Shown one piece after another: positions 18,564-61,781 of a stretch of 64,000 nt of DNA. A model generated the notes under the pieces. It was given only the letters and a program-made list of their open reading frames with translations. It was not told where the DNA came from and searched no databases. The stretch's first letter is position 1. Every line of letters starts with the position of its first letter. The position numbers and the translations under genes are program-made. The stretch comes from a virus (taxonomy: Duplodnaviria; Caudoviricetes): the IMG/VR virus record IMGVR_UViG_3300013121_000039, positions 1 through 64,000 of that record. The stretch is one strand, 5' to 3'.

Positions 18564-19322
18564 TCACTTCCGGGGCTTCTGGGTGATGGCCCCAAGAGGC
18601 AGCACCCGTTGCGTGAGAGAGAACACCTTGGTCGTCTTCAGAACTCGTCCGCCGTAGGACGGAGGACGCAGTGAAGAGGCCTGCGACTCCGACTGGCTCA
18701 CAGCCTCAGAAGTTAGTCTCAGGTCGAGCCCTTTGAGAAGGAGATTGTCGATCGGAGCGATGCTGTAGGTGTCCTGGAAGAAGAAGGGCACCATCACCTG
18801 CACCGCGCGGTAGCCCTTCGCGTCAGGGATGATCCGCTCGGCAGGCATCTCAGCGCTGTATCCGACGTTCTCTCCCACCCTGTGCATCCCGAGACGCATG
18901 AGATGCCGCTTCAGGGTGCGCGTGGCGTAGCCGGCGATCCAGGCCAGCCTCTGAGCCTCCAACCCTTCCCGCGACAGGCAGGAGTAGAGCATCGCCGAGG
19001 CGACCAGATCGGTGTGGGACCTGGCCCCCGTGGCGAAATCGAAGCTCTTGAACTGGTCCATCGAGACGTTGAGCCAGTCCGCCTGCCCGCGCATGCACAC
19101 GATGCTCGGACGCTTCTCGGCGGCCGGGTTGTTCACCGTGAACTGGTCGGAGATGGTGATGTCCGTCTGCTCCAGGTCCGGCTCCCAGCGGTAGGACCCC
19201 TTCTCGAAGGAGTGGAAGACCACTTGGAGAAAGCGGACGAAGACCTTCGTGAAGTGGAAGAGCGGATCCTCTCCCACAGCCTGCGGCTGCACCTCGCCCG
19301 TGGTGGTCTTCGGCTCACTCAT
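18564..19322 (-). CDS. Putative tail terminator/neck protein
   Basis: Immediately upstream of the sheath. RPSIVCMRG and alpha/beta pattern of tail-completion proteins. Confidence 0.5.
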   Translation of the reverse strand: MSEPKTTTGEVQPQAVGEDPLFHFTKVFVRFLQVVFHSFEKGSYRWEPDLEQTDITISDQFTVNNPAAEKRPSIVCMRGQADWLNVSMDQFKSFDFATGARSHTDLVASAMLYSCLSREGLEAQRLAWIAGYATRTLKRHLMRLGMHRVGENVGYSAEMPAERIIPDAKGYRAVQVMVPFFFQDTYSIAPIDNLLLKGLDLRLTSEAVSQSESQASSLRPPSYGGRVLKTTKVFSLTQRVLPLGAITQKPRK

Positions 19323-19662
19323 CCTTGCCTTCGACCATCCTCTTGTACTTCTGGGCGCCGTACTGTTGTGCCGCGAGAGAGGCGAGACCGAGTGCCCCGG
19401 TGGCGGTGTTGAGGACTCGGTACTTGGTCTGCGGAGTCCACTTCGGGTAGCTCTTCTTGAAGGCGCGCCGCAGGCCCTCGTCGACCAGGAGGGCGGCGGA
19501 GTAGCCGGCAGCGCTCCCCGCCGCCGAAAGGGCGCCGGCCTTCAAGACCCTCTTCCACAGGGGCTTGGGCTTCTTCGGGAGCTGCGGCTCCTCGGCGATC
19601 TTCTCCAGCTCGTCGAAGAGGGCTGCCTGGGTCTCAGCGGAGAGCGCCACGAGGCTTCCCAT
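19315..19662 (-). CDS. FxDELxKIA-tagged small basic protein with two hydrophobic Gly/Ala segments
   Basis: AALFDELEKIA near the N-terminus. Start ATG 19662 or GTG 19650. Confidence 0.75.
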   Translation of the reverse strand: MGSLVALSAETQAALFDELEKIAEEPQLPKKPKPLWKRVLKAGALSAAGSAAGYSAALLVDEGLRRAFKKSYPKWTPQTKYRVLNTATGALGLASLAAQQYGAQKYKRMVEGKDE

Positions 19663-20551
19663 TCCAGAACGAGAGGATGTCCCTGTTGTCACCATCGGCC
19701 CCGACGTTCTGCGAGTTCGTGAAGTTCCTCTCCGCGGCGGGGGTGAGCTCCCTGGGATCCACCTTGACCTCGATGGCGAATTCGACCTCGCTTCTCGGAA
19801 TCTCGGCCAGGGTCAGCTCTTGGTGGACAGCGGCACGAAGTCGCTGTGTTTCTTGCACATTCACCACCCGCCATCTGCGGTTCTCGGACTCGACCAGTAT
19901 GTCTCGCTGAGTCACGGGTGGGAAGGAACTCATGCGCGCGGTCGTCATGGAGGGGAGGATCTCTCCCTCCGGGGACCCCACAGCGCTCTTGGGGTTCGGG
20001 TCGAACTGGACGTAGACCTCGACCGGCGAGAGGAAGCCGCCCAGCCAGCCTGTGCCGAAGCAAGGCAGGTGGCCAGAACGAGTCTGCCTCCCGAGCGTCA
20101 CATCGAAGCAAGAGCACCGGGGGCCGAATGACCTGGCCGGGAAGAGCCAGCTCTTGCGGCCGACGAACTCTCGGAAGAGGACGTCTTCTTGCCTCTGGAT
20201 CTCCAGAGCGATGAGGTCCGGCTCTGGGTTCTTGGTGGCAGTGGGGCCGAACTCCTTCGTGTCCCCCGTGCGCTTGTCGATGACGCGGAGCTTGTAGAAG
20301 AACTGGTGCCACTTGTTGACCTGCGGCACCGCCGAGTCGCGGAAGTGGTAGGTGTCGCGGAGGGCCGGGCTGATGACCTCGTAAGGCCCCAGCGCAGCCT
20401 CGCTCCGCAGCACCGTGAACTCGTAGTTGAAGATCTCGTGGTTCGAGAGATCCTGGTCTCGGCTTGGGCCCGCAACGGCAGCGATCTCCCAGAAGACTTC
20501 CTGGTGGGAGAGCGTGAAGCTGCGTGTCCAGAGCTTCGAGACGACGAGCAC
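19634..20551 (-). CDS. Putative head-closure/neck protein with Cys motif
   Basis: FN3-like N-half, then RCSC..PCFGTGWLGGF motif, followed by a beta-barrel-like DILVE..RWRV segment. Confidence 0.55.
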   Translation of the reverse strand: MLVVSKLWTRSFTLSHQEVFWEIAAVAGPSRDQDLSNHEIFNYEFTVLRSEAALGPYEVISPALRDTYHFRDSAVPQVNKWHQFFYKLRVIDKRTGDTKEFGPTATKNPEPDLIALEIQRQEDVLFREFVGRKSWLFPARSFGPRCSCFDVTLGRQTRSGHLPCFGTGWLGGFLSPVEVYVQFDPNPKSAVGSPEGEILPSMTTARMSSFPPVTQRDILVESENRRWRVVNVQETQRLRAAVHQELTLAEIPRSEVEFAIEVKVDPRELTPAAERNFTNSQNVGADGDNRDILSFWNGKPRGALR

Positions 20552-21363
20552 TAGGAGTCCCGCACCATCTGGTACGACTGGAGGTTGTTGGTCCCGGGCG
20601 TGTAGGTGGCCGTGATGGTGTAGGCCGCCACCGGGTTGATGCCGTTCTGCGCGTCGGACTTCGATCCGAAGATCCGCAGCCGGCCGGACGTGAGGTTGTT
20701 CTTCACGTCGAAGATCGTCTGGTCGAGGACGCTGTTCTCCTTCACGAGGCCGAGCATCCTGGTCATGTTCGACTTCAGCTCGTTCAGGCGGGCGGTGAAG
20801 TCAGCCGGGATGAGGTCCGTCTTGGCCTTGATGGCGTCCCGCGCCTCGTAGATCTTCCCGAAGAGGGAGTCCGTGCCAGAGACGTCGGCTGGAGTGCCGA
20901 TGTTGGTCGTGCCCCCAGCTTCCTGCGCCTCGATGATGGCGTTCAGCCGTCCGAACTCGGTGTCGACCGACGACAGGTCGGTCGGCTGGCCCTGGAGCGC
21001 TGCGATGCCGCTCAGCACCGGGTCCATGGCCGTCACGACACCCTCGATGTTCGTGGCTGTCGCCGCCACCTCCGAGATGGGAGCGTCGAGCATGGAGTCG
21101 GTCGGCCCCACCACCCCGGACTGGTAGCGGCGATCAGCCGGCACCACCAGCCCACCGTCGATCTGGAAGAAGTACTCGTGCCCCGACGTGTCGCCCTCTC
21201 CGCCGTAGGTGTACTCGAAGAAGTAGCTCCCCGTGCCGGGGATCTCGGTGATGGTGGGGTAGCTGCCCGGGTCGACCGGTGTCAGCGTGTCGAGGTCCAC
21301 GAACGCCGAGAACGTCGGCGTGAGTCCGACATACCCCTGTCCGAAGTTGACGATGTACCTCAT
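20551..21363 (-). CDS. Virion structural protein (contains one KAKTDLIP repeat)
   Basis: Shares AIKAKTDLIPAD with the 6649..8262 repeats. Confidence 0.65.
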   Translation of the reverse strand: MRYIVNFGQGYVGLTPTFSAFVDLDTLTPVDPGSYPTITEIPGTGSYFFEYTYGGEGDTSGHEYFFQIDGGLVVPADRRYQSGVVGPTDSMLDAPISEVAATATNIEGVVTAMDPVLSGIAALQGQPTDLSSVDTEFGRLNAIIEAQEAGGTTNIGTPADVSGTDSLFGKIYEARDAIKAKTDLIPADFTARLNELKSNMTRMLGLVKENSVLDQTIFDVKNNLTSGRLRIFGSKSDAQNGINPVAAYTITATYTPGTNNLQSYQMVRDS

Positions 21364-24864: not shown

Positions 24865-25341
24865 CTACCTCTTCCTGAGCTTGGCGATGAGGCGCTTCAC
24901 GCCGGACTTGGCGCTGTCGTAGAAGTTCTTGGGGATGCCCTTCGCGGAGTCGGCGATGTAGTCGCCGAGCCAGGTCCGCCCCTGGGCCGCACGGGCCCGC
25001 GCCTTCTCGTTCAGGTGGCCCAGGCCGTAGCCGATCCCGGCAGAGGTCGCCCCGCCCAGCACGGTGTCGATGGCCGCGCCCGTCCGGCGCTTCTTCGCCA
25101 TCGCCTTGCGCTTCTTCTCGTCGGGCTCCGCCCGCATGTCCTTCGCCTGTTCCAGATGGTCACGGCTGACGTGCTTGATCCCCTTGTAGGCGGCCGTGCC
25201 GAGACCGAGCGCGAGAGCCCCTCGCCGGCCAGTCCGGATCGGGTTCCACTTCGGGTCCGGAGCGGCATCCGCCGTCTTGGTGATCTCGCCGGAGATCTTC
25301 TCCAGCTCATCGAAGAAGCTCGTGGTCGGAAGAGTGGCCAT
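24865..25341 (-). CDS. FxDELxKIA-tagged basic glycine-zipper protein
   Basis: TSFFDELEKIS..TKTA, two Gly-rich hydrophobic segments. Confidence 0.8.
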   Translation of the reverse strand: MATLPTTSFFDELEKISGEITKTADAAPDPKWNPIRTGRRGALALGLGTAAYKGIKHVSRDHLEQAKDMRAEPDEKKRKAMAKKRRTGAAIDTVLGGATSAGIGYGLGHLNEKARARAAQGRTWLGDYIADSAKGIPKNFYDSAKSGVKRLIAKLRKR

Positions 25342-25539
25342 CTAGAACCCCGTCTTCGGCATGGCCCCAGGGCCAGCGGTCATGGTGGACATCGGCTTGG
25401 GGGCAGGCGTGATACGTGGCGTCTTGGGCACCCCCATCCCAGCACCCTTGGAGTTGACGGTCGGAGCCCCGGCCGGCGCCAGGCCAGTCGAGATCTTCTC
25501 CAGTTCGTCGAAGAAGCTCTTGAGCACGTCTGCGGTCAT
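25342..25539 (-). CDS. Minimal FxDELxKIA-tagged peptide (65 aa)
   Basis: GAGGTG RBS before ATG 25539. KSFFDELEKIS followed by a P/G/T-rich tail. Confidence 0.75.
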   Translation of the reverse strand: MTADVLKSFFDELEKISTGLAPAGAPTVNSKGAGMGVPKTPRITPAPKPMSTMTAGPGAMPKTGF

Positions 25540-25546: not shown

Positions 25547-26680
25547 TCAGGCCGACAGACGGCCCTTGAGCCCGCCCCACAGCGAAGCGAGACGCTTGCC
25601 GATGCCCGGAGTCATGGGCGGAAGTGGTTGTCCGGTCCGCGCCTCCAGTCCTCGCTTGGCCTTGATCACGGCCTCCCGCACCCCGGGCATGAGCGAGGCC
25701 TGGCCTCCCAGCGACATCCCGATCCGTCCGGCCCGTGTCGGGTCGGCCTGCGCCTCAGCCCTCATCGCGGCCCCGAGCCTGCGGGTGTCGAAGGCGGCCG
25801 GGGAGATTACGAGGTCGGCGGCGTGCTGCGCCGGCCGACTCAGGTTCCCGTGCTGGAGACCCTGCTTGAACTGCTCCTTCATGAAGGTCTGGCCCTGCTT
25901 GCTCCGCCCCACGAAGTTGCGGATCCCGTTCACCCCCATGTGGACGGCGGTGTGGGGCTCGGCGGCGATGGCCGCGGCCCCGATGCCGGCGCTGACAGCC
26001 CTCTGGCCCAGGGTCGGTGCGGCGCCGGCGGCGACGGTGGGGATCTTGTCCATGAACCCCTGCTTGTTGCCCAGGATCCGGTTCACGGCAGGCACCACCG
26101 ACTCCCCCATCGGCGCATGCCGCACGTGCTCGGACATGGCCACGTTCTTCCGCAGCTTCTTGAGCTGGCGGTACCTCTTCCCCTTGCCCATGGGGGCGAG
26201 CTGCTTGCCGAGCTCCGTTCCGAGGTCGTAGTTGACGAGAGACTCCGGGCCGACGCCGTAGGTGGCGACGTTGCGGGCGATGGGGTTGATCTTCTTCCCC
26301 TCCAGGCCGTGCCTGTAGCCCGTGGCGACCTGCCCAGCCTCGAAGCCACGACCACGGTCGGTGTTCCGGACGAACCCCTTGTAGAGCGCGTTCGACCCCA
26401 TGTGCAACCCGGCCCCCAAGGCCAGGGAGCCGAGGATGGCGGTCTTCTCGATCTCCCGAGTCTCGTCGAGAAGGCCTCGCACCATGGCCGACTTCTCCAT
26501 CTTGCGGAGCTTCTCGTAGTAGGCCGGGTCCTCGCTGAGGTGGTCCCTCGCGATCTCCTTGGCGAGCGTCTTGTTGGACGTGTGCTCCCGCTCCACCCTC
26601 GCTCCCCGCTCGACCTTCTTTGCAGGGAACGCGGAGGGCGGGATCTTGTCAGCCTTGCCGCCTGGCAGGAGGTCGCTCAT
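25547..26680 (-). CDS. DUF5661-like domain plus degenerate tag, basic protein
   Basis: GARVEREHTSNKTLAKEIARDHLSEDPAYYEKL matches the DUF5661 pattern, then GLLDETREIEKTA. Confidence 0.75.
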   Translation of the reverse strand: MSDLLPGGKADKIPPSAFPAKKVERGARVEREHTSNKTLAKEIARDHLSEDPAYYEKLRKMEKSAMVRGLLDETREIEKTAILGSLALGAGLHMGSNALYKGFVRNTDRGRGFEAGQVATGYRHGLEGKKINPIARNVATYGVGPESLVNYDLGTELGKQLAPMGKGKRYRQLKKLRKNVAMSEHVRHAPMGESVVPAVNRILGNKQGFMDKIPTVAAGAAPTLGQRAVSAGIGAAAIAAEPHTAVHMGVNGIRNFVGRSKQGQTFMKEQFKQGLQHGNLSRPAQHAADLVISPAAFDTRRLGAAMRAEAQADPTRAGRIGMSLGGQASLMPGVREAVIKAKRGLEARTGQPLPPMTPGIGKRLASLWGGLKGRLSA

Positions 26681-28147: not shown

Positions 28148-28948
28148 CTACCTCACGACCTGGGCTTGCCCGACGAAGGGCGGGTGGTAGGGGATGCCGG
28201 CCGTCTGGAGGTTCTGAGCCCGCATGCGTGGCGGCATGCTGGCGAGCCTCTTGGACTCCAGAGACTCCGTCAGGCGTCGAATCGCGTGCCGGGAGAGGCG
28301 AGGGCTCTCGCCGTACTTCAGCCCGTACGGGGCGAAGTACTCCCGGTCCCCGTGAGCGGGGAAGTTGCGCATGCCCTTCATGAACTGCTTCACCGGGGCC
28401 GCGCTCTCCGGAAGCGTCGCCACACGGTTGTGCTCCTTGAAGATGACCGCCGGGTTGTGCTCGCGGACCACGCTCGTGCTGCCGAGCTCGTCCAGCTCGT
28501 GACCCTTGATCACCCCTTGCAGGATGCGGTTGTTGGCCGGGTCCCTCATCTTGGGAAGCTGCCGCACGTGGGCCTCGTCGACGCCGCGGCGGATCTCGGA
28601 GACGGCTCCCGGGGCTTGGAAGATCCGGGGGGTGTGCCCGGCGAGAGCGGCGGCCGGCTGCTTCACGGCTGCACGGACCACCTGGTCCCGGCCAGTCTCT
28701 GCCAGCTGCTGCCGGAACTCGGGCCGGACGGGCCCGGTGAACTTCTTGAAGAGCTCCTTGCCGCGCTGGAGCATCCCCGAGACCGACTGGTGGGCCGACA
28801 TCGGGCCGATCCCCAACCTCTTGGAGATGCGGGTCGGCACGTTGACCTGGAGCTTCTTGGCGAGGCCGGCCACGCGCATGGCCTCCTCCTCGCCGAAGGC
28901 GACCTTCTCCAACTCGTCGAAGAAGCTGTAGAGGGTCTCAGGCCGCAC
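28148..28948 (-). CDS. FxDELxKIA-tagged basic protein with HELDE...H motif
   Basis: YSFFDELEKVA; GHELDELG..REHNPAVIFKEHN. Confidence 0.75.
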   Translation of the reverse strand: MRPETLYSFFDELEKVAFGEEEAMRVAGLAKKLQVNVPTRISKRLGIGPMSAHQSVSGMLQRGKELFKKFTGPVRPEFRQQLAETGRDQVVRAAVKQPAAALAGHTPRIFQAPGAVSEIRRGVDEAHVRQLPKMRDPANNRILQGVIKGHELDELGSTSVVREHNPAVIFKEHNRVATLPESAAPVKQFMKGMRNFPAHGDREYFAPYGLKYGESPRLSRHAIRRLTESLESKRLASMPPRMRAQNLQTAGIPYHPPFVGQAQVVR

Positions 28949-30748: not shown

Positions 30749-31141
30749 TCAGACCTCGTTGAGGGCGGCGAGGAAGCGGGTGGCGGCCTGGTCGCCCTCG
30801 GTGTCGCCCGAGGACTCGACCTCCAGGTCGGTCTCGTGGACGAAGGCGACCTTCGTCTGCGGGGCGGCCATGCCCACGGCCTCCTCGACGGCGTCGAGGT
30901 TGTCGCGCTGCATGAGCTCGGCGATCTTCTCCTGGAGGCTGGAGCCCGGGTTGAGCCCCTTCTCCTCCATCTGACCGGCGATCTTCTCGACCCGCGCCCG
31001 CTTCTCGAACGCCGCCACCTTCTGCTTGAGGTCGGTGTTCTCGTCGCGGAGCTTGGTGTTGTCCTCCGAGAGAGCTCGGAGGTTGTCGGCCGCCAGCTTC
31101 GAGAGCTGGGCGACCTGGGTGTTGCTCAGCTTGGTCGGCAT
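30749..31141 (-). CDS. Scaffold-like coiled-coil protein, K-x-A rich
   Basis: Start ATG 31141 (MPTKLS). 6 of 10 Lys are followed by x-A. Confidence 0.7.
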   Translation of the reverse strand: MPTKLSNTQVAQLSKLAADNLRALSEDNTKLRDENTDLKQKVAAFEKRARVEKIAGQMEEKGLNPGSSLQEKIAELMQRDNLDAVEEAVGMAAPQTKVAFVHETDLEVESSGDTEGDQAATRFLAALNEV

Positions 31142-32199: not shown

Positions 32200-32571
32200 C
32201 TAGATATCCCCCGCCGAGGTGGCGAGGGGCGGTGGAAGGCTGTCCGGCACCGGCCGGCTGTTGAGGAACGGCTTCGAGGGATCCCTGCGCTTGTTGGCTG
32301 CGATCTTCTTCATCTCGTCAGAGAACCCCTTCAGGAAGGCCAAGCTGCTCGTCTTGGACTTGCTGCTGGGGTCCGCCGTCTGCGTGTACTCCGACTGCGA
32401 CTTCCGGTACTTCCTCTTCGCCTTCTGCTTCCCTTCCGCCGTCCCGTAGCCTCCGGGGGTGTGTCCTGTTGCGTGCGACTGCTGCGTGGCGATTGCGAAG
32501 GCCTGGCTCTTCGGCATCGCCGGGTTCTTCGAGAGGATGTGCTCTGCCCTGTTGTGGATCCAGGCTGGCAT
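32200..32571 (-). CDS. Tagged small basic protein
   Basis: GAGGAG RBS before ATG 32571. Internal FLKGFSDEMKKIA. Confidence 0.75.
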   Translation of the reverse strand: MPAWIHNRAEHILSKNPAMPKSQAFAIATQQSHATGHTPGGYGTAEGKQKAKRKYRKSQSEYTQTADPSSKSKTSSLAFLKGFSDEMKKIAANKRRDPSKPFLNSRPVPDSLPPPLATSAGDI

Positions 32572-32580
32572 GAGCTCCTC

Positions 32581-32625
32581 GAACAACATCCCAGGGGCGG
32601 CGTCTCGTACCCGCCGCCCCTGGGA
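32581..32625 (-). terminator. Terminator after the acidic scaffold gene
   Basis: 14-bp stem TCCCAGGGGCGGCG/CGCCGCCCCTGGGA. TGTTGTTC follows on the minus strand. Confidence 0.7.
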
Positions 32626-41244: not shown

Positions 41245-41247
41245 GGG

Positions 41248-49318: not shown

Positions 49319-52300
49319 CTAGTAGACGTACGGCTTGGGCTTCGCCCCTGGGGCCGGCTTGGGGGCCTTCCCGAACTCCGCACCATAGGCCAGGCCGGGG
49401 ATGGGGTGCGAGCCGTGGATGTCGCTCTTCCACCCCATGCCGGCGCCACGCTGAATCGTCTCGCCGAGGCGCTGGTAGTTGAGGCGCGCCATCCAGTCCT
49501 CGCTGAAGCGTGGGATGTTCTCCGAGCCCTTGAGGAATGGCTCGTGGAGGACCGGCTTCGCCTTGGCCCCCTTGAGCTCCCGGTTGTGCTCCTCGACCAC
49601 CGAGTGCGGGACGATGTCGCCGACCTCCCAGTGGGAGTGGCCAGGATCCTTCACCCTCGTGTAGTTGGTGAGGGCCCTGACCACGAGCTCGACGTTGCGC
49701 TGACGCACCGACTGGTCCTTGTAGAGCTTCCCGTAGAGCTCGTCCGTCAGGAGGCGCTGCACATCCTTCATGTCCTTGGTGATGTGGAGCAGCTCCCTGG
49801 GGTGGACCGGCGCGCCCTCATGGGAGAGCGATTGGCCCTTGCGGATCTGCATGCCGACCGTCAGACCCTCCCTCATCTCATCCGGCCGCAGGTGGTGGAG
49901 CACCCCACCGATGTTGACGTCGTGACCGCCGAGGCCTGGAGCCGGCTTGATGGAGAGGATCGGCCCCTCCGTCTTGGCGAGGACCGCGGAGCCGCGGAGG
50001 ATCTCCGGCATCTTGAGGATCTGCTTCAGGCGCTCGATCTTCGAGGTCGAGCTTCCCCCGCGCCCTGAAGCCACACCGCCTGAGTGGAAGGCGTCCATGG
50101 CGAGCTGGGTCGCGGGCTCTCCGAGAGCCTGCCCGGCCAGGACGCCGATGTTGGTCCCCACGGAGTGGAGCTTCCCGTTCTCGTTCAGGCCGAAGCACTT
50201 GGCGCAGATCCCCTCGCCGTGCTGGCAGCGAAGCGGGGAACGGACCTGGACCTCCTTCTTGGGGCCGAGCAGCTTCTTGAGCCCGTTGACCACGTCCGGG
50301 GTGAGCAGCGTCCCCGCACGGTGCTGCCCGTACTCCTTCGCGAGGAAGCGGTCGTGGATGTCCTCATGGTCGAGCGACATCGAGATGCCGTTGTGGGTCT
50401 TGCAGTCGTCGCTCGTGATGAGGGTCGCGATGGTGGAGTTGATGATGTCCTTGGTCATCGTCCCTGGCTCCTTCGTGCCAGAGGCGCGGTCCAGGGTCCC
50501 CTTGCGCGCACCATGCTGCGCCAGCCAGTAGTCGCCGAGGTCGAGCCCCTCTCCGTAGGACTTGGTGATGGGGCTGAGCACCGTACGACCTGCCGAGTCC
50601 TTCACCAGCATCGGTGCCGCGATCATCTGCCGGAGCTGGTTCTGCTTGCCGCGAGCTCCCGAGTGCACCATCGTGGCGAGCCGGTTGTCCGACCCCACCT
50701 TCTTCGTCGCCGCGTCGAGCTTCTGGGTCGCCTCGGTCCAGTGCGCCTCCAGAGCCTTGCTCAGCTGCTTCCGGTCCTTGATGGATGCCTTCATCTTCTG
50801 GGCACCCTGTTCGTACTCGTGGATGATGCGGTCCCGCTCCGGGATGGTGGCGAAGTCCTTCAGGCCGATGGAGAAGCCGTGCTTGAAGGACTGGTCGGTC
50901 CCGAGATCCTTCAGGTGGTTCACCGCCGAGTCGAAGTGGTCCGGGTGCTTCCTGGCCACTTCCTCCACGAGACCGTGGAGCGTCCCCTTCGACACCACGT
51001 AGTTGGGGTCGTGGAGCAGCGTCTCGTTCTTGGAGAACCCCCGCGGCATCTTCTCGGCGATGAGCAGTCGCCCCAGGGTGGTCGGACCCTTGGCGCCCTG
51101 GAGGTGCACCACGTCCGTCATCTGGAGCTGGCCCGAGTCGTGGGCCTTCTTCATTTCCGCGATGGTCTTGAAATTCTTGCCCGTGTCGGACCCCCACTTA
51201 GAGATGAGGTGCAGACCGAGCATGAACTCCTGGTTGGGCACGTGCATGGGCCCGAAGGTGGTCGGCGAGAAGAGGTTCTTGGAGGGGAACATCCCCTTCG
51301 CCTCCTCCACCGCCTCTCGGGAGATCGGCACCGTGCCGGCCATGGTGTCGCCGTCGAAGTCGGCGTTGAAGCCGCCGGTGACGAGCGGGTGGATCTTGAT
51401 GGCCTTACCCTCGACCACCTTGGGCCGGAAGGCCATGACCGAGAACTTGTGCAGGGCCGGGTCCCGCTTGAGCAGCAGGGGGCGGTCGGCCATCACGGCG
51501 TCGAGCGCCTTGAGGGCGTGCGGCGCCTTCGACTGCATGGCCTCCAGTGCCTCCTCGGGGGTGTACCCGAGCTTGGTGTGGAGGTGCGCGATGACGAAGG
51601 GCTTGTAGAGCTCCATCGCTGCATGGCCCGGGAGCCCGACCTCATCGAGGTGGAGGGTCGGCTCGGGGATGATCACGGAGCGGATGGAGAGGTCCTGGCG
51701 ACGCTTGACGAGGCGGGACTGGAAGTAGCCCGTCTTGGGCTGGTCCCCGCCGATCACTTCGAGGATGCCCTTGAGCGGCCTCTTCTCGGCAGCGTCCTTG
51801 TCGTAGATCGGGTCGTAGGAGCCCACGGACTGGAGCGCCTTGAGCCCGTTCCAGAGGGAAGTGCGGACCATGGAGCCGGGTTCGGGGCCGAAGCGGTCGA
51901 CCGGCAGCTCCCGCAGCTTCTCGTTCAGCAGGAAGACGTTGCGGTAGTGGTTGTTGAGACTGCTCTTCGCCACGTCTCCATAGTTGGTCATGGCGACCGG
52001 CCGGAACTTGGGAGGCAGGACCGGCACGTTGTGCATGACGTAGGCCTCGTGCGGCTGGAGACCCGCCTCCTTCAGCGCCAGGAGGTACTTCAGAGAGCGG
52101 TTGTACTGGTCCCGCTTGTTGCCGCGCTTGGAGCCGATCTGCTCCCGGATCATCTTGATGGAAGCGTCGACGTCGATCTCCTTCAGCGCATCGCGGATCG
52201 CAGCCCCACCGGTCTTCCCGTTGAGCTGCTGCTTGCCCGTGACGACGGCGTCCACATCCGACACCGAGAAGTTCGGATGCTTGAGGCCGATGAGGGATGG

Positions 52301-55300
52301 GATGGGGCCCTTGTTCTGGGTGTCGCCGACGAAGATCGGGTTGGGCAGTGGTTCGGAGAGCTTGAAGTGGCTCCACCGATCCCCCTCGGTCCCGACGATG
52401 GCCGGGTCGAAGAAACCGCCCTTCTCGGGCTTCACGCTTCTGGCGATCAGGAGCCCGGCCGTCTTCACCTCGTTCGCCCCAGCGAGCCTCAGGAGGTTCT
52501 TGTCCCCCATCGGCAAGAGCCGGAGGTGGGACCCGTTCTTCTGGACATCGACCCCGAGCCCCTTGAGCAGCCCCTCGAACTTCTGGAAGGCGAACGGGAC
52601 CTTCGGGGTCCCAGGCTCGTGCCCCTCCTGGATCATCGACCAGAAGTCCTCTGACTGCTTGTCGGACTTGTAGGACGCCATCTCGCGCAGCACGTTGCGC
52701 GCGTTGTGTCCGAGGAGGGAGTAGACCTCCAGGGCACCGAAGCCTTGGCCGCTCTGCGGCCCGCCCCTGACTGGCTGGTTGTCCTGGTCGTACTTGTAGC
52801 CCTGAGGAGCTCGTCCCGGGGCTCCGAGGTCGGAGCCGCCGCCGCGGACGAAGAGCTTCTTCTCGACCTGGTGCTTCAGCTTGATGATGTGCTGAGGTCC
52901 GACGAGGACCGACCCCAGAGGTCTGCGCGAGTCCTTCGGATCGAAGACCTGCTCCTCGTCCGTGAGCCCGTGCTTCTTGAGGTCCTCCTCCACCTGCTTG
53001 CGGTAGTCGTGGTTCGCGCCGGCGAAGTTGTCGACGAGGTAGGTCTTCCCCGTCTTCTCCGCGATCTTGGCCGCGGCCGTCTCCAGGACCTGTCCGACGT
53101 TGATGCGGGTCGGCACGCCGGACGGGTTGAGGATGACGTCGAGGGGCTTCTTCTTCCCCTCATGCGTCGTGTATGGCATCTCGTCGTCCGGCAGGATCAT
53201 CGTGATGATGCCCTTGTTGCCGTGCCGGCCCGAGAGCTTGTCGCCGATCTCGGCCTTCTCCTCCGTCTTCACGAAGACGCGGACCGACTTCCCGTTGGGG
53301 CTCTTCACCACCCGGGTCACCACCCCCGGCCGGTCCTCGTCCCAGGTGAGGGACTTGTCCTTCCAGATGTTGGTGAGCTTGGTGTCGAACCGCTTGGCGG
53401 CGTCGAGCGCCTTCTCCAGGTTCGGGGTGACGCAGGTGGCCAGCACCTGACCGGGGAGGACGCGCGCCCCCTCCTTGATCACCCCATCATCGTCGAGCGC
53501 CTTCCAGTGCTCCGGCGTCATGCTCTCCGCCCGACGAGAGGCGTTGGCCTTCCAGACGCTCTTGCTGGTCCGATCCTCCTTGGGATCGATGTCGAGATGG
53601 AGCTTGTGGAGATGCTCCGAAGTCAGCCGCTCCGAGGCGCTCTGTGAGATGACGATGCCGTCCTCGAAGTTGTAGCCCTTGTACGGCAGGTAGCCCACGC
53701 GCAGGTTGGTCCCGAGCGCGAGCTGGCCGTTGCGGGTGAAGTTCGTGTCCGCGACCCGCTGGCCCGCCTTCACCTCGTCCCCCACCGCCACCGTCGGCGA
53801 CGAGTGCAGCATGGTCGTCGGGTCGTTGAGCGGGAAGTGGTTGTAGAGATGGACGACGTGCTCCTTCCCGCCCTCGTTGATGTGGATGGCGTCAGGAGTG
53901 ACCTTCGACACCTTCCCGGCGACCTTGGAGGTGTGGGAGGCGAAGGAGGTCCCGATCAGCTTCTCGAAGGTGTTCTCCGGGTTCGCTGGGTTCACCACCG
54001 ACTGCACGAGAGGCGCTTCCCGGTGCTTCAGGGAGATGGCCTGCTCCATCTGCTTGTCGGCCATCGACGCCCGGTTACCTTGATCGGTGGGCAGGAAGGG
54101 GATGAGGTTGGAGGCGTAGCTGAACATGCCCTTGGCGGAGGGCATGATGAAGTGGGCCTCGGAGAAGGGCCTCTTCTCGATGTCGCCGCCAGGGAGCTTG
54201 ACCTTCACCTCCTTGGCGATGGGGACCGGCTTGCCTCCGGTGAACTTCACCTGGTCAGGCAAGACCACCATGGCGGTGTGGAACTCCGGCACGGAGACGC
54301 TGCGGAGCTTGCCGGTCTTGAGGTCGTAGACCTGGGTCTTGAGCTCGTTGTTCTCCTTGCGGACCGCTGACCCGAGGTGGAGCGTGATACCCGTCCGCTC
54401 CGACTCCGGGGTGTGCATCGGGTCGAGGAACCCAAAGTGGGATGGGTTCACGGTCTGCATCTCGGCGCCGAGCGTGTCGGGGCTCTTGATGCCGCCGAAG
54501 TCCTTGGAGATGAGGGTCGTCTTGAAGTTGGCCGAGAGCATCTGCACGGGGTTGGTCTGCTCCCCGCGCTCTGCCACGCCACTGCCCTTCGAGAAGAACT
54601 CCCGGATCGGCCGGTTGAAGACCTCACCGCCGAGGAGGATCTCGGAGGCCGAGTTCTTGTGGCTCAGGGTGGCTCGCACCTTCTGGACGATCTGGTTCCG
54701 GCTCTTGCCGAGCTTCTCCGGCAGGTAGTCCTCGATGTGGGCCACTTCCTTGAAGATGAGGCTGTCCCGGTCGTCCGGCTCGACCTCCTTGCGCTCCAGC
54801 TTGATGAGCTTGTGGACAGAGGCCAGCAGAGCCCCGCCGGTCACCTTCGAGAAGGGGGTGCCGAGCGTCACCCGGGTCGTGTCAGGGAGAAGCTCCGTCT
54901 CGTCGAAGTACTTGTAGACGTGCTCCTTCACCTGCTCCGGCGTGGGGGACGACAGCTCGCCGCCCGTCTTCTCGTAGAACTTCCGAAGCGTCCGGTCGAC
55001 GGCTTCAGGGGCAGCGATCCGGTTGGCTGCGAAGACCTGCTTGCCCCAGGTCTGCTCCATCTCGTCGTCGGACACGCCCATGACCTTCATGAGCGGGTAG
55101 ACGGGGATGTGGGCCCCACCGCCGTGGGGCGTGAACTGGATGAGGCTCTTCTTCCTGTCGAGCTCCAGCGTGAAGTTCTTGTGGCCGCCCTTGCGCAGCA
55201 TGAACTCCGAGGCCAGGTCGCCGTTGCGACGGACCTTGGTGTAGACGCCGGAGCGCAGCTTGAGCAGGTGGTCGACCTGGTACTCCCCTCCATCGACGAT

Positions 55301-55600
55301 GAAGGAGAAGCGCGAGGTCATCTTGGGTACCTTCGCGACCTGGAGCGTGGAGGGGCGGCCGACCGGCTTCCCGGTCAGGTTGTCGACCAGTTGGACCGTC
55401 GCCTTGATGGGGATGCCCCAGGTCTGGTCGTGGTCCTTGGCGTGGACCTGGCTGGCGATGTCGTTCGGGTCGAGGTTGTCCTCCGCCCAGATCTTCAGGA
55501 GCTCCAGAGAGCGGTTCCTGGACTTGAAGTGGGGGAAGAGTTCCTGGACCTTCTCGATGACGTTCTGCGTGAGATTCGTCATCTTGGCGTCGGAAGCCAC
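49319..55600 (-). CDS. Phage DNA-dependent RNA polymerase, fused beta-beta' (2093 aa)
   Basis: Beta motifs HFGFLDPMHTPES, GYNFEDGIVIS, GDKLSGRHGNKG, LNPSGVPTRINVGQ. Beta' motifs RDPALH, FNADFDGD (51347-51367), HGARKG bridge helix, GEPATQLAMDAFHSGG trigger loop. AGGAG RBS before GTG. Confidence 0.95.
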   Translation of the reverse strand: MASDAKMTNLTQNVIEKVQELFPHFKSRNRSLELLKIWAEDNLDPNDIASQVHAKDHDQTWGIPIKATVQLVDNLTGKPVGRPSTLQVAKVPKMTSRFSFIVDGGEYQVDHLLKLRSGVYTKVRRNGDLASEFMLRKGGHKNFTLELDRKKSLIQFTPHGGGAHIPVYPLMKVMGVSDDEMEQTWGKQVFAANRIAAPEAVDRTLRKFYEKTGGELSSPTPEQVKEHVYKYFDETELLPDTTRVTLGTPFSKVTGGALLASVHKLIKLERKEVEPDDRDSLIFKEVAHIEDYLPEKLGKSRNQIVQKVRATLSHKNSASEILLGGEVFNRPIREFFSKGSGVAERGEQTNPVQMLSANFKTTLISKDFGGIKSPDTLGAEMQTVNPSHFGFLDPMHTPESERTGITLHLGSAVRKENNELKTQVYDLKTGKLRSVSVPEFHTAMVVLPDQVKFTGGKPVPIAKEVKVKLPGGDIEKRPFSEAHFIMPSAKGMFSYASNLIPFLPTDQGNRASMADKQMEQAISLKHREAPLVQSVVNPANPENTFEKLIGTSFASHTSKVAGKVSKVTPDAIHINEGGKEHVVHLYNHFPLNDPTTMLHSSPTVAVGDEVKAGQRVADTNFTRNGQLALGTNLRVGYLPYKGYNFEDGIVISQSASERLTSEHLHKLHLDIDPKEDRTSKSVWKANASRRAESMTPEHWKALDDDGVIKEGARVLPGQVLATCVTPNLEKALDAAKRFDTKLTNIWKDKSLTWDEDRPGVVTRVVKSPNGKSVRVFVKTEEKAEIGDKLSGRHGNKGIITMILPDDEMPYTTHEGKKKPLDVILNPSGVPTRINVGQVLETAAAKIAEKTGKTYLVDNFAGANHDYRKQVEEDLKKHGLTDEEQVFDPKDSRRPLGSVLVGPQHIIKLKHQVEKKLFVRGGGSDLGAPGRAPQGYKYDQDNQPVRGGPQSGQGFGALEVYSLLGHNARNVLREMASYKSDKQSEDFWSMIQEGHEPGTPKVPFAFQKFEGLLKGLGVDVQKNGSHLRLLPMGDKNLLRLAGANEVKTAGLLIARSVKPEKGGFFDPAIVGTEGDRWSHFKLSEPLPNPIFVGDTQNKGPIPSLIGLKHPNFSVSDVDAVVTGKQQLNGKTGGAAIRDALKEIDVDASIKMIREQIGSKRGNKRDQYNRSLKYLLALKEAGLQPHEAYVMHNVPVLPPKFRPVAMTNYGDVAKSSLNNHYRNVFLLNEKLRELPVDRFGPEPGSMVRTSLWNGLKALQSVGSYDPIYDKDAAEKRPLKGILEVIGGDQPKTGYFQSRLVKRRQDLSIRSVIIPEPTLHLDEVGLPGHAAMELYKPFVIAHLHTKLGYTPEEALEAMQSKAPHALKALDAVMADRPLLLKRDPALHKFSVMAFRPKVVEGKAIKIHPLVTGGFNADFDGDTMAGTVPISREAVEEAKGMFPSKNLFSPTTFGPMHVPNQEFMLGLHLISKWGSDTGKNFKTIAEMKKAHDSGQLQMTDVVHLQGAKGPTTLGRLLIAEKMPRGFSKNETLLHDPNYVVSKGTLHGLVEEVARKHPDHFDSAVNHLKDLGTDQSFKHGFSIGLKDFATIPERDRIIHEYEQGAQKMKASIKDRKQLSKALEAHWTEATQKLDAATKKVGSDNRLATMVHSGARGKQNQLRQMIAAPMLVKDSAGRTVLSPITKSYGEGLDLGDYWLAQHGARKGTLDRASGTKEPGTMTKDIINSTIATLITSDDCKTHNGISMSLDHEDIHDRFLAKEYGQHRAGTLLTPDVVNGLKKLLGPKKEVQVRSPLRCQHGEGICAKCFGLNENGKLHSVGTNIGVLAGQALGEPATQLAMDAFHSGGVASGRGGSSTSKIERLKQILKMPEILRGSAVLAKTEGPILSIKPAPGLGGHDVNIGGVLHHLRPDEMREGLTVGMQIRKGQSLSHEGAPVHPRELLHITKDMKDVQRLLTDELYGKLYKDQSVRQRNVELVVRALTNYTRVKDPGHSHWEVGDIVPHSVVEEHNRELKGAKAKPVLHEPFLKGSENIPRFSEDWMARLNYQRLGETIQRGAGMGWKSDIHGSHPIPGLAYGAEFGKAPKPAPGAKPKPYVY

Positions 55601-57111: not shown

Positions 57112-59232
57112 CTAGACGCCGGTCGAGGCGATGCGGCGGGTCGGCTTCTGCTGCGGCTGCGGACTCTGGATCGCGTCGAGTGGGTTCTCCTGCGAGCCAC
57201 GCTGCTGGTTCAGGATCTGGAGGACCAGCGAGCCGAGCTGCGGGTTGCCCATGCGGAGCTTGTTGAGCTCCATGTTGGCCTGCATGGGCCCCTGCTCCTT
57301 CTCGATCTTCTCGATCTGGTTGGCGGCCCGCTTGGCGAGGTACTGGAGGTTGTAGCCGCCGCCCTTCTGCCCCATCTGGAGCGGGGACTGCATCGCCTCC
57401 GGGAGCCCTTCCTGCGGCGCCTGCTGTGCGTTCTCCGGCGAGACCGTCGTGCCCTCGGGCATGGACGGGTCGACCTGCTGCCCGTCGATCATCTCTCCCT
57501 GGGCCCCGCTGGCCGGGGTGGGCTGGCCCATGGCCCCGGGCGGGCCCTGCTGACCGCCCTCGGCTCCCTGCTGACCGCCCATCATGGCGTCGAGCCCGCC
57601 GGCGCCGGCCGCGGCATCCCCACCGACCCCCATCTGCTGCCCGCCGTTGGCTGCCTGCGCCTCGGCCTGGGCCTTCATCATCATCTCCTGGCTCTTGGCC
57701 GCGTAGCGGCCCTGGACCAGGGAGACCTCGCCCATGATGCCGGCCTGTGCCAGCTGCTGCTTGCGCATGATGGCCAGCTGGCGGTCCATCTCCTTCTGCC
57801 GACGCTCGTCCTCGACCCCCGCCTCGAAGTCGCACTCGCTGAGGAGGGTCTGGTCGGAGATCTTCTGCGCCTGGTTGAGCTGGAAGTGGAAGGCCATCCG
57901 CTGGAGGTCGTCCGCCATCTTGAAGCGCTTCATGTGCGCCCTGACCACGGGCCACTCCATGAAGTCGGCGATGCGCCGGATGACGAAGTTGTTGAGCATG
58001 TTCTCGTGGTCCTGGCGGTACCCGATGAACATGTTCTCCAGCATTCGCATCGAGACGTTCGAGCCGGAGTACTGCATGCCGCCGAAGATGAACTCCTCGG
58101 GCACGCCCATGCCGGCCACGATGTGGCGGCTCCAGACCTCCATCTCCTGGTAGAGGCCGAGCGCCTTCCCGTCACCGCCGATGGTCTCGTTGCCGATGGG
58201 CAGTGGCAGGATGGGGATGTAGTTGTTGTCGTACTTCCACTTGGCGATCTCGGTCTCGATGCGGCCCTTCCAGGCGTTGAGGTCGACCGTGGTGTACGGG
58301 TCTGAGGTGCTGGACCCCGCCTGCGGGAAGAGCACGCGCAGCGGCACGATGTGCTCTTGCGCGATGGTCTCCTGGGCCTTGCGGAGCACCTGGAGGTAGA
58401 AGGTGTCCTTCAGCACCGGCATGATGAGCGGCATGCCCCAGCCGTTGTCCTTCTGACTGATGATGGGGCGCCGCATCACGAAAACGTTGTCGTCGGTGAA
58501 GCGGATGTACTTGTTGCGCCGCAGGGCCTCGACGAAGACGTCGGAGACCGTGTCGAGGACAGTCTTCTTGCCGAGGATGAGGTCGTTCTTGAGCTGGAGC
58601 GGAAGCTCGAAGGTGTAGACGGGGTCCGCGCCGCCGAAGCCCGGGTCGACGTTGAGGTACTCCGGATTCCAGCGCATGAGCCGGATCCGGCGGTAGTCGC
58701 GCTCGAAGAAGTCGAGGACGGTGGCCGGCCCTTCGTGGTGGCACTTGTCGCAGGCGAGGATGTACTCCAGGTTGCGCCACTTGTAGTGGACCGCGGACGC
58801 CTTGTGCCGGTGCTTGCAGGCCTTGCAGATGAGCCACTTCGTGAACGGGAAGTGGATGGTCACCACCACGATCCCGTAGGTGTAGAAGTCGAGGCCGCAC
58901 TCGATCTGGAAGGCGCGGTAGCGCAGGTGCTGGCCCAGCACTTCTTCCCACTTCTGCCTGACCTCGTTCTTCGTCTCGTCGATGACGATCTCCGTCACCG
59001 GGTACTCGCTCATCTTGTGGATGGTGGTGTTGATGAGCGGGTTGACGAGGTAGTAGTAGCGGCACCACCTGAGCAGCGCCTTCATCGACGGCGGCAGGTA
59101 GGTGTGCGCGATGTCGAAGAAGGGGGATGGGTAGCGGACACCGCTTCTGTTGGTCCCGTCGGCAGTGCGGCCGCGCTGCCCGGAGAACCGAGCTGCGCCG
59201 GAGGCACCCAACGAGAGAGAGTCCATGCTCAT
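57112..59232 (-). CDS. Portal protein with Zn-ribbon insert and Gln/Gly-rich tail
   Basis: RYYYLVNPLINTTI, GWGMPLI..L, IVAGMGVPEEFIFGG..YSG portal patterns; CKAC..CDKC. Confidence 0.82.
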   Translation of the reverse strand: MSMDSLSLGASGAARFSGQRGRTADGTNRSGVRYPSPFFDIAHTYLPPSMKALLRWCRYYYLVNPLINTTIHKMSEYPVTEIVIDETKNEVRQKWEEVLGQHLRYRAFQIECGLDFYTYGIVVVTIHFPFTKWLICKACKHRHKASAVHYKWRNLEYILACDKCHHEGPATVLDFFERDYRRIRLMRWNPEYLNVDPGFGGADPVYTFELPLQLKNDLILGKKTVLDTVSDVFVEALRRNKYIRFTDDNVFVMRRPIISQKDNGWGMPLIMPVLKDTFYLQVLRKAQETIAQEHIVPLRVLFPQAGSSTSDPYTTVDLNAWKGRIETEIAKWKYDNNYIPILPLPIGNETIGGDGKALGLYQEMEVWSRHIVAGMGVPEEFIFGGMQYSGSNVSMRMLENMFIGYRQDHENMLNNFVIRRIADFMEWPVVRAHMKRFKMADDLQRMAFHFQLNQAQKISDQTLLSECDFEAGVEDERRQKEMDRQLAIMRKQQLAQAGIMGEVSLVQGRYAAKSQEMMMKAQAEAQAANGGQQMGVGGDAAAGAGGLDAMMGGQQGAEGGQQGPPGAMGQPTPASGAQGEMIDGQQVDPSMPEGTTVSPENAQQAPQEGLPEAMQSPLQMGQKGGGYNLQYLAKRAANQIEKIEKEQGPMQANMELNKLRMGNPQLGSLVLQILNQQRGSQENPLDAIQSPQPQQKPTRRIASTGV

Positions 59233-59235: not shown

Positions 59236-59940
59236 CTAGTCCCTGAGGCCTTGGGGTGGGGGCGGCAGCGAAGGAGGATGCGCCGGCTTGGGCCGGACGC
59301 CGCGGAGCTTGTCGACGGCCGCGCCGGCCGTGTCACCGATCTTGCTGCCGACCATCGACGAGAGCAGGCCTCCGGTGAATCCGAATGGGGCACCGATGAT
59401 ACCCCCAGCCTGGTCTCCGGCGAAGCGAAGAGCTCGCCTCACCCGGCTGTGGCCCTGGCCAGAGGGGTCCTCTCGCTTGAGGACGTCCCTGGTCCCGGTG
59501 AGCAGACCGTACCCCATCAGCGCCTTCCATGGCAGGCTGAGTGGCTGCCCGCCAGGCCGCCAGGTGGACTCCCACCCCTTCTGGAAGCTCTTCTTGGGAG
59601 ACGCCCAGGCCGCGGTCGCCTTGCCCAGGTTCTTCCCGACCCCCTCGGCCTGGTTCCGGACGAACCGCGTCGCCCGGCTGCCGAAGGCCTGGGCCTGCCC
59701 AGCAGCCTGCCCCATGTCGAAGGCCGTCTTCACGTTGCCGACGTGGGCCTTCTTCACCTTGTCGCCGAAGGCGCACTTCCCACAGGGCCCGTGGTAGCTG
59801 CGCAGGTCTCTCGTCGACCCGCACTCGTCGCATCGCGGCTTGTGGAGCTTCCCACAGTCCGGACACGTGATGATGCGCGCGACCTTCGTCTTGGAGATCT
59901 GGTCGACCTCGTCGAGGAAGGAGAGCAGGTCCGGGATCAC
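59236..59940 (-). CDS. Tagged Zn-finger plus glycine-zipper protein (234 aa)
   Basis: True start is GTG 59940 overlapping the upstream stop. LSFLDEVDQISKTKVA, CPDC..CDEC..CGKC, VKTA, GGIIGAPFGFTGG. Confidence 0.75.
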   Translation of the reverse strand: MIPDLLSFLDEVDQISKTKVARIITCPDCGKLHKPRCDECGSTRDLRSYHGPCGKCAFGDKVKKAHVGNVKTAFDMGQAAGQAQAFGSRATRFVRNQAEGVGKNLGKATAAWASPKKSFQKGWESTWRPGGQPLSLPWKALMGYGLLTGTRDVLKREDPSGQGHSRVRRALRFAGDQAGGIIGAPFGFTGGLLSSMVGSKIGDTAGAAVDKLRGVRPKPAHPPSLPPPPQGLRD

Positions 59941-60878: not shown

Positions 60879-60879
60879 C

Positions 60880-61464
60880 TTACTCCCAGTACTGGCTGGC
60901 TCCGTGCTGGACCACGAAGGGCTGGTGGGTCTGCGGCACCGCGATCGGCTTGGCGATCGGCTGCTTCACCACCCGCTTGGAGACGGCATGCATGGCCGGG
61001 TTCTGGAGCATCTGGGCATCCCCGGCGGCTCGCGGCAGGACCTTGGGAGCCGCGGCCCGCAGACGGGCCGCCGCCGCCCTGGGGTCGACGAGCTTGTTGG
61101 GAGCAGGCGCCGCCTTGGCTGCCTGCCAGGCTCCTTGGAGGGCGCCCTGACGCAGCATGGCCTTCGGATCGATCGTCGCGAGCTTGGGCTTCTTGAACGC
61201 CTTGTAGGCCGAGTGGGCCAGGTGCATCGCCGATGGGGCGGCGAGGATGCCGAGACCTGCGAGCTCGTACTTGGCAGCCTTCCGCTCTTCGGGTGGCGTC
61301 TCCTTCTTCTTGATCTTCCGGAGACGGTGCACGCTCGGGACGGCGAGGACTCCGAGGCCCGCGAGCTCGGCAGCGTGGGTCAGATGTTCGCCGATGGCCG
61401 CCTCCTTCTCCAGCTCGGAGGAGACGGCAGCGGCCAGGGCCCTGAGACGCTGTGGGTGGAGCAT
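60880..61464 (-). CDS. Tagged basic protein with duplicated ELAGLG(V/I)LAxPS segments
   Basis: Start ATG 61464 (TGATG coupling). AVSSELEKEA. Confidence 0.75.
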   Translation of the reverse strand: MLHPQRLRALAAAVSSELEKEAAIGEHLTHAAELAGLGVLAVPSVHRLRKIKKKETPPEERKAAKYELAGLGILAAPSAMHLAHSAYKAFKKPKLATIDPKAMLRQGALQGAWQAAKAAPAPNKLVDPRAAAARLRAAAPKVLPRAAGDAQMLQNPAMHAVSKRVVKQPIAKPIAVPQTHQPFVVQHGASQYWE

Positions 61465-61781
61465 CAGCGCACCTTCATGACGGGCTTCCGCCCGAGGAGC
61501 CCCTTCTTGGCGGCGACGTCGGACAGGCGCGCCGCGGCAGCCTGTGGGGACACGAGCCTCTTCGCCCGCGCCTGCTCGTTGGCCCACGACTGGAAGGTGG
61601 GATGCTGGCCGACCGGCTGCCGCACCGGGGTCGGCTTGAGGGCAGCCGCCGGTGCGGCCAGCGGCTTCGCCACCTGGCCGATGTTCTTCACGTTCATCGC
61701 CCGGCCCATGCCGCCGACATCCCCGAGGGCTGCGATCTTGGTGAGCTCGTCGAAGAAGGCGTTCAGCGTGACGCGGGTCAT
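61464..61781 (-). CDS. FxDELxKIA-tagged small basic protein
   Basis: MTRVTLNAFFDELTKIA. Confidence 0.8.
   Translation of the reverse strand: MTRVTLNAFFDELTKIAALGDVGGMGRAMNVKNIGQVAKPLAAPAAALKPTPVRQPVGQHPTFQSWANEQARAKRLVSPQAAAARLSDVAAKKGLLGRKPVMKVR

Follow-up and report, generated by a model that had tools for sequence, protein, structure and literature searches.

Why would a phage attach the same short peptide to many otherwise dissimilar proteins? We addressed this question in IMG/VR record IMGVR_UViG_3300013121_000039, a virus of the Caudoviricetes. The record is 138,310 bases long, with a completeness rating of 72% and a GC content of 65%, and the stretch analyzed here (the window) is its first 64 kb, 64,000 nucleotides in all. 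From 1 to 63 kb, nearly every gene lies on the minus strand, and together these genes make up a myovirus structural module. An initial annotation had proposed that about 15 unrelated proteins of this module carry a peptide tag with the core F-x-D-E-L-x-K-I-A, which directs them into the phage head. Our answer, argued by analogy and held with moderate confidence, is that the tag is a capsid-targeting leader of the phage T4 type, ending in a new protease site, and that fewer proteins carry it than had been proposed.

We searched both strands of the window with a strict sequence pattern. This search returned nine matches that fit the tag, one C-terminal tag-like match, and one stray match, all on the coding (minus) strand, and zero matches on the plus strand. 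We also built a profile hidden Markov model (HMM) from 109 instances, all of them from relatives, and ran it on a six-frame translation of the whole record. Nine matches scored between 15.9 and 20.5 bits, eight of them in the window and the ninth at 120662-120688, whereas the next six-frame match scored only 4.6 bits and the maximum in a reversed-proteome control was 6.7 bits. All nine strong tags are confined to the two structural clusters of the record, and none falls in the plus-strand block at 64 to 92 kb, a block without function assignment. The eight strong tags in the window are as follows (aa, amino acids):

19594-19620, minus strand: tag LFDELEKIA (pattern match, 20.5 bits), near the N-terminus of gene 19315-19662/19695, a small basic glycine-zipper protein with net charge +7.
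25291-25317, minus strand: tag FFDELEKIS (18.1 bits), with F 8 codons past the ATG of gene 24865-25341 (158 aa, basic).
25489-25515, minus strand: tag FFDELEKIS (20.1 bits), with F 8 codons past the ATG of gene 25342-25539 (65 aa).
28898-28924, minus strand: tag FFDELEKVA (17.2 bits), with F 8 codons past the GTG of gene 28148-28948 (266 aa), which sits immediately downstream of the capsid gene.
32299-32325, minus strand: tag FSDEMKKIA (17.6 bits), residues 89-97 of gene 32200-32589 (129 aa).
42579-42605, minus strand: tag FYDELDKIA (15.9 bits), 12 codons past the ATG of gene 41733-42641 (302 aa, basic), a glycine-zipper protein (Pfam Gly-zipper_YMGG, E 2.6e-5, under the gathering score).
43217-43243, minus strand: tag FIDELTKIA (17.8 bits), N-terminal in gene 42638-43261 (207 aa), a papain-like (C92/NlpC-P60-type) amidase (Pfam Peptidase_C92, E 1.9e-7, residues 38-137).
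61731-61757, minus strand: tag FFDELTKIA (19.6 bits), with F 8 codons past the ATG of gene 61464-61781 (105 aa, basic).

The number of tagged proteins first proposed, about 15, was too high: eight tags in the window are robust, about three more are supported by orthologs, and four are unsupported. In addition, the positions listed for them were the low ends of genes, not the positions of the motif. Two of the weaker instances can be placed as follows:

59893-59919, minus strand: weak tag-like FLDEVDQIS, with Q in place of K (pattern match; HMM 4.5 bits, under the control maximum of 6.7), N-terminal in gene 59236-59940.
25547-26680, minus strand: DUF5661 domain (Pfam, E 1.9e-10), followed by a degenerate tag, LLDETREIEKTA (residues 69-80), and a basic body rich in glycine.

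Gene 59236-59940 also encodes a Cys-rich, zinc-ribbon-like segment (C-P-D-C ... C-D-E-C ... C-G-K-C) right after the leader, followed by a glycine zipper. In 25547-26680, GLLDETREIEKTA is degenerate in this record; its orthologs have a canonical tag at the matching place, after the DUF5661 domain, where they read KKAF[AI]DELMKI[AS]. The LLDETEKVA near the C-terminus of 36024-36959 scores -0.2 bits, and the ortholog consensus there is [AS]LD[ES]E[IV]xKVA. An acidic scaffold-like protein contains AYTQELRKIA at 4.4 bits, and its orthologs, which read LGRVMAH[AS]YxQELxKIA, score 5.6 to 7.5 bits. The proposal that the tag mimics a scaffold helix is backed by this conserved half-match, Y-x-Q-E-L-x-K-I-A, in the acidic protein orthologs, and by nothing further. 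No test supports as tags AVSSELEKEA (gene ~60880-61460), LLAELRKHA (35780-36034), the C-terminal GFISELMSIGG of 44145-45545, or DLFFDKVA of the capsid protein, the last of which the initial annotation had taken for a related helix. The 44145-45545 product (466 aa) is Gly/Ala-rich with a net charge of +48, its C-terminal peptide is tag-like in look, and it has a weak J-domain match (DnaJ, E 6e-6, residues 193-240) under the gathering score; we did not find its ortholog in two complete relatives.

We aligned the instances found in the record and its relatives to define the tag. Taken over 122 unique instances, they give the consensus [AGS]-F-x-D-E-L-x-K-I-[AGS]. The residue preceding F is A, G, or S in 116 of the 122, although this position lay outside the search pattern, and positions -3 and -5/-6 favor hydrophobic residues. 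Downstream of the tag, we found no conservation among these 122 instances. Start codons peak exactly 8 codons upstream of F (83 of 222 unique instances), and an in-frame stop occurs at most 24 codons upstream in 101 of the 222; therefore, the usual form of the tag is a 17-residue N-terminal leader, M-x6-[AGS]-F-x-D-E-L-x-K-I-[AGS]. That the tag is usually N-terminal, as first described, agrees with this peak, with the qualification that a smaller number lie inside the protein (at residue 89 of 129 in 32200-32589, for example, and behind DUF5661 in the orthologs of 25547-26680). Of all tagged slots in the family, that of 32200-32589, which is flanked by the scaffold-like and capsid genes, is the best conserved, with a tag in 60 related loci. 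In both 25547-26680 and 32200-32589, a domain of 65 to 85 residues lies ahead of the tag, and for 32200-32589 there are distant orthologs without the domain that begin at the tag. AlphaFold2 models the tag region as a helix over residues 6-25 (pLDDT ~80), and the predicted helix would be amphipathic, with F, L, and I sharing one face.

The carriers have little in common beyond the tag. When the tag was masked, no pair of window carriers matched at E < 0.01, which confirms that they are otherwise dissimilar. They are mostly small, basic, and Gly/Ala-rich, often with glycine-zipper segments, and their net charges of +3 to +48 contrast with the -35 and -14 of the scaffold-like proteins, a charge pattern like that in T4. 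Two carrier pairs are in tandem (24865/25342 and 41733/42638). Searches of Pfam, PHROGs, and NCBIfam gave no match for most carriers or for the scaffold and core candidates. Across the fetched loci, we counted 226 unique tagged reading frames, 42 of which have at least 170 residues after the tag and fall into 31 sequence clusters. Among the tagged proteins of relatives are an SNF2-family helicase of 751 aa (L157:5165-7417, minus strand), a domain of the InPase (pyrophosphatase) family (PF18823, E 1e-45; L140:8507-9646, plus strand), a GNAT acetyltransferase with a glyoxalase-like domain, a P-loop protein, and a MazG domain with a P-loop NTPase. In all these enzyme carriers, the tag lies 5 to 10 codons past the start. 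The tagged InPase-domain protein and the SNF2-type helicase are candidates for early-acting or counter-defence proteins that arrive with the DNA.

The tag is maintained across a wide range of base composition. Relatives of 28%, 38%, 54%, and 59 to 68% GC encode the identical peptide with differing codons, and upstream of the tagged genes we found no common nucleotide element beyond the ordinary ribosome-binding context. With codons varying and no upstream motif shared, we rejected an explanation at the RNA or DNA level; selection acts on the peptide and not on the nucleic acid. Using the capsid protein, we recovered 169 related loci in IMG/VR, at 59 to 84% identity; complete genomes of relatives reach 190 to 210 kb, and the clade overall spans approximately 160 to 210 kb. 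Each complete relative examined encodes roughly nine or ten tagged proteins, and tags are still present in the 28%-GC relative, whose capsid protein is approximately 30% identical.

Outside this clade, the tag is rare. Of the 13 IMG/VR records that have the tag and are at least 90% complete, 12 encode the capsid family, down to approximately 30% identity. We rejected one C-terminal pattern match, which looks like chance; it lies in G038, a provirus record of 31.6 kb that lacks the capsid family. A back-translated F-x-DELEKIA pattern matched 94 IMG/VR stretches. In 596 Gb of bacterial and archaeal genomes, FFDELEKIA occurred only three times, each time internal to an unrelated frame, which is chance level. 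A profile search of a 5.8-billion-protein collection with the tag alignment found only 18 proteins, all from metagenomes and for the most part orthologous to the small tagged protein, and gave no functional lead for the tag; a full-text literature search with five peptide strings found no paper. The nearest cultured phage is Salmonella phage Arash, with a capsid protein 27% identical, and the tag is absent from the 40 kb surrounding its capsid gene, the region examined. We found no cultured model, and the phage itself is known only from metagenomes. By these distributions, the tag is lineage-specific and tracks one capsid-protein lineage.

What happens at the end of the tag? The initial annotation had proposed that the tag ends in a K-x-A site for a prohead protease, and the narrower motif K-[ITV]-A is enriched in head-core proteins encoded beside a protease of the T4 gp21 fold. 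We compared K-[ITV]-A counts with those expected from per-protein shuffling. The head module has 50 sites against 13.9 expected (z 9.7; approximately 3.6-fold), whereas the tail genes have 1 against 4.3 and the rest of the record 22 against 15.7. The enrichment is limited to the head module, where the sites are bunched in a few proteins, including acidic scaffold or core candidates:

30749-31141, minus strand: coiled-coil protein of ~130 aa, a candidate scaffold, upstream of the capsid gene, with 3 K-[IV]-A sites.
31156-32199, minus strand: head-module protein of 347 aa, with 6 K-[ITV]-A sites (p = 1e-3).
32635-33414, minus strand: acidic scaffold-like or core protein, net charge -35, in which the half-tag AYTQELRKIA (33028-33051) is followed by EEKTAG and then by a basic glycine-zipper segment.
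36024-36959, minus strand: acidic protein of 311 aa, in which K-[ITV]-A occurs 8 times where 0.35 would be expected (p = 4e-9) and which has a tag-like C-terminal helix; a candidate for a core protein that is cut to pieces.
45545-48244, minus strand: head-module protein of 899 aa, with 7 K-[ITV]-A sites.
61778-63307, minus strand: protein of 509 aa upstream of the portal cluster, with 7 K-[ITV]-A sites.

There are 3 sites each in the acidic protein 32635-33414 and the protease, and 2 in the first 26 residues of the capsid protein; the portal protein, the terminase, and most other head-module proteins counted have zero. The pattern recurs in relatives. Orthologs have 7 sites for 36024-36959 (G003), 6 for 61778-63307 (G003), and 6 (G002) and 4 (G003) for 45545-48244; the same orthologs lead the enrichment list in the 59%-GC relative, and in the 28%-GC relative a coiled-coil scaffold candidate leads, with 4 sites against 0.17 expected. 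The residue following K-[ITV]-A is usually small. At residues 20-27 of the capsid protein, E-G-K-[ED]-K-I-A-E is nearly invariant across the family, with K24 and A26 invariant. This stretch looks like a cleavage-type sequence and not a tag, and is a possible maturation site. From these patterns in the protein sequences, K-[ITV]-A, the final three residues of the tag, is probably the site of the prohead protease.

The protease itself was identified by fold comparison alone, and a search of PDB sequences with it gave no match:

33457-35178, minus strand: prohead protease of 573 aa (weak match to phrog_18299, "head maturation protease", E 8e-7), with an N-terminal gp21/assemblin fold.

A model of its N-terminal 265 residues (pLDDT 75) has T4 gp21 (5JBL) as its top match, with a Foldseek probability of 0.99, Z 9.7, and a root mean square deviation of 2.9 A over 134 residues; herpesvirus assemblins come next, with Z 6 to 8. 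Orthologs retain H-H-x-N-K-D, D-V-S-M-G, and an N-terminal G-x-[FLM]-E-K-T-A-G, which in 33457-35178 is the conserved G-x-F-E-K-T-A-G near residue 30. The protein is far longer than T4 gp21, with Cys-rich stretches (C-x2-C type, approximately residues 176-190, 252-257, and 293-313) and a C-terminal domain of approximately 240 residues that could be a docking or scaffold-binding domain.

The other landmarks of the structural module are all untagged:

15249-18554: sheath.
29023-30141, minus strand: major capsid protein (phrog_2522).
38232-40031, minus strand: large terminase subunit (phrog_675, E 9e-62; zero K-[ITV]-A sites).
49319-55600, minus strand: single-chain beta-beta' RNA polymerase of 2093 aa (Pfam RNA_pol_Rpb2_6, E 1e-60, plus Rpb1 domains 1-5).
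57112-59232, minus strand: portal protein (phrog_16240; zero K-[ITV]-A sites).

The RNA polymerase combines Rpb2-type (beta) and Rpb1-type (beta') domains in one frame and is a fused enzyme of the multisubunit type. Its gene lies inside the head module, flanked by the portal gene and a baseplate-spike-like gene, and its product is 42 to 53% identical to those of two complete relatives and 33% identical to that of the 28%-GC relative. The virion probably carries this enzyme. In the short interval from the terminase gene to the tagged genes, at 40100-41700, the minus-strand frames are of low quality and several plus-strand frames occur; this may be an inserted plus-strand island. Outside the window, a second minus-strand cluster at 93000-129000 of the record encodes very large proteins (689 to 1492 aa). 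The ninth tagged gene (120404-120712) lies there, as does the gene of a baseplate wedge homolog (phrog_6, E 1.8e-10); because of this cluster, the structural genes are split into two blocks.

If the tag is a capsid-targeting leader, its helix would first dock newly made cargo into the assembling prohead core. The cargo would be mostly small, basic, Gly/Ala-rich proteins, together with enzymes that vary among relatives, and the acidic scaffold or core proteins would co-assemble with it. Once active, the gp21-type protease (33457-35178) would cleave at K-[ITV]-A. The leader would be clipped from the cargo, and the core proteins 36024-36959, 45545-48244, 61778-63307, 31156-32199, 32635-33414, and 30749-31141 would be chopped, their peptides exiting the head. 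The basic cargo would remain with the DNA and reach the host at infection beside the probable virion RNA polymerase. What we infer in this scheme is packaging, the bond that is cut, the helix receptor, and ejection. Where the tag is internal, a cut at its K-I-A site would free the N-terminal domains of 25547-26680 and 32200-32589 as separate small proteins.

Several points weigh against this scheme. Nothing is conserved past the tag, so the position of the cut is a guess. Because some tags are internal, a strictly N-terminal signal is not required, and because the probable virion RNA polymerase is untagged, the tag is not the sole route into the head. Lys/Ala-rich helices could explain part of the K-[ITV]-A enrichment, as shuffling ignores helical periodicity, and the glycine-zipper, membrane-like segments of several tagged proteins would also fit a membrane role. 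We predicted the complex of the capsid protein with a 45-residue tag region; both runs, made without controls, gave an ipSAE of 0.00, which speaks neither for nor against binding.

A more ambitious form of the capsid-targeting proposal, which we put forward tentatively, is that one helical address peptide is used throughout the clade (160 to 210 kb, 28 to 68% GC) to load interchangeable head cargo, and that the peptide is removed by a protease of the gp21 type whose K-[ITV]-A specificity has not been described before. Among the cargo would then be helicases, acetyltransferases, nucleotide-hydrolysing enzymes, and cell-wall amidases, along with many small basic proteins active on membranes. Because the peptide works either N-terminally or behind a domain, it would be a position-independent docking helix with a specific prohead receptor.

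Could the leader instead serve the protease alone? Its only role may be that of a propeptide, or of an extended element by which the prohead protease recognises its substrates, with head entry left to other means, such as charge or DNA or scaffold binding by the protein bodies. The tag does end in the enriched K-I-A, the protease does have the gp21 fold, and a helical leader preceding a cut site is an arrangement known from other systems, such as the double-glycine leaders recognised by C39 peptidases. We nevertheless think this unlikely. Dozens of K-[ITV]-A sites in the core proteins lack the F-x-D-E-L half, so cutting seems independent of it, yet no part of the tag is better conserved than this half across relatives of 28 to 68% GC; thus, besides the presentation of the cut site, F-x-D-E-L would have a separate job, which we take to be docking. 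Moreover, the tagged helicase and the pyrophosphatase-family domain have no other common feature by which to enter the head.

Somewhat less likely again is that the helix docks to another common partner, such as a phage chaperone, a membrane-insertion or lysis/exclusion system, or the tail and baseplate assembly. Many carriers have glycine-zipper, membrane-like segments, one of the nine tags belongs to the baseplate cluster, and the J-domain-like 44145-45545, for all the weakness of its DnaJ match (E 6e-6), is encoded nearby. Against these stand the position of the top-conserved tagged gene between the scaffold-like and capsid genes in 60 loci, and the final three residues of the tag, a motif enriched only in head proteins. 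The leader is also acidic, unlike a signal peptide, and a membrane role is at odds with the soluble enzymes that carry the tag.

We consider it very improbable that the tag is a timing or stability signal, either a degron or a translation-level element of late genes, with no role in localisation. Its N-terminal placement at a fixed distance from the start codon would suit such a signal, as would the many tagged genes that overlap, or begin at, an upstream stop codon. However, the freely varying codons behind a constant peptide and the lack of an upstream nucleotide motif argue against an RNA element, internal copies of the tag exist, and most late structural genes, including those for the capsid, portal, sheath, and terminase, are untagged. 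Least probable of all is that the common N-termini are relics of descent or of paralog recombination without a joint function, since, even if several small, basic, Gly/Ala-rich carriers, some in tandem pairs, could be old paralogs, no similarity is left outside the tag, enzymes of unrelated folds are headed by it, and it is near-invariant where capsid proteins are only approximately 30% identical.

The value of a capsid-targeting leader in this clade lies in the quality of the example and not in a new principle. How proteins are selected for phage heads is poorly understood even in T4, and a long, near-invariant leader with hundreds of natural examples, varied position, and a probable protease site makes the receptor and the loading rules experimentally approachable. 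Within the clade, the tag is also an annotation key, flagging genes of probably virion-delivered proteins, including candidate early-acting enzymes, and it leads us to predict that a gp21-type protease has a new cleavage specificity. If the address-peptide proposal is true, the tag would offer a tractable handle on the localisation of core proteins.

The tag resembles the double-glycine leaders of class II bacteriocins. These are N-terminal amphipathic helices in which small residues come after an E-L-x-x-I core, and a dedicated protease removes them. The tag shares the N-terminal amphipathic helix, the E-L-x-x-I core, and the small residues, and would likewise be removed, but the resemblance is in form only: its other hydrophobic positions are in a different register, and its context is a phage head module. 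We found no conserved G-G after the tag and, among the window proteins scanned against Pfam and PHROGs (part of the record's genes), no match to a C39 peptidase or an ABC transporter. The cargo-loading peptides of encapsulins, like the C-terminal capsid-targeting tail of the HK97 protease, are short portable peptides that dock cargo inside an HK97-fold shell or scaffolding domain; they are usually C-terminal, are not helices of the F-x-D-E-L type, and are not removed. The tag would likewise be a short cargo-docking peptide, but it is mostly N-terminal and has the F-x-D-E-L helix.

The phiKZ-like giant phages, represented by SPN3US, are large myoviruses with many head and ejected proteins, including RNA polymerase. 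In SPN3US, gp245 removes N-terminal propeptides of 20 to 254 residues at A-x-E sites (PMC10052503). The removal of N-terminal propeptides by a gp21-type protease would be common to both systems, as would multiple cuts, which in SPN3US fall in long propeptides. SPN3US differs in that the A-x-E motif is all that is shared, no common leader peptide being reported (PMC10052503), whereas here one leader is reused, and the RNA polymerase is fused into one chain.

The best parallel is T4 itself, where internal proteins IPII and IPIII carry a capsid-targeting sequence that is removed by the prohead protease gp21 (Mullaney & Black 1996, cited in PMC9958956). The T4 leader loads foreign proteins into the core by a mechanism that has been called mysterious (PMC9958956). 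Both systems have a short N-terminal leader on unrelated, basic proteins (in T4, head-internal ones) that ends in the motif of the head protease (probably so here), a gene for a gp21-fold protease close by, and acidic core proteins in which this motif abounds. The leader here is longer, approximately 17 residues with a 10-residue near-invariant core, compared to approximately 10 in T4, and its probable site is K-[ITV]-A in place of [LI]-x-E. There are approximately 10 carriers per genome, enzymes included, the tag sometimes stands behind an N-terminal domain, and the capsid lineage is not that of T4. The tag consensus has no sequence similarity to the T4 leader; the analogy is one of proposed function and not of homology. 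The principle is that of T4 and is not new; what distinguishes the present system is the length of its leader, its near-invariance over a wide range of GC content, its occasional internal position, its association with a non-T4 capsid lineage, and a cleavage specificity that would be K-[ITV]-A.

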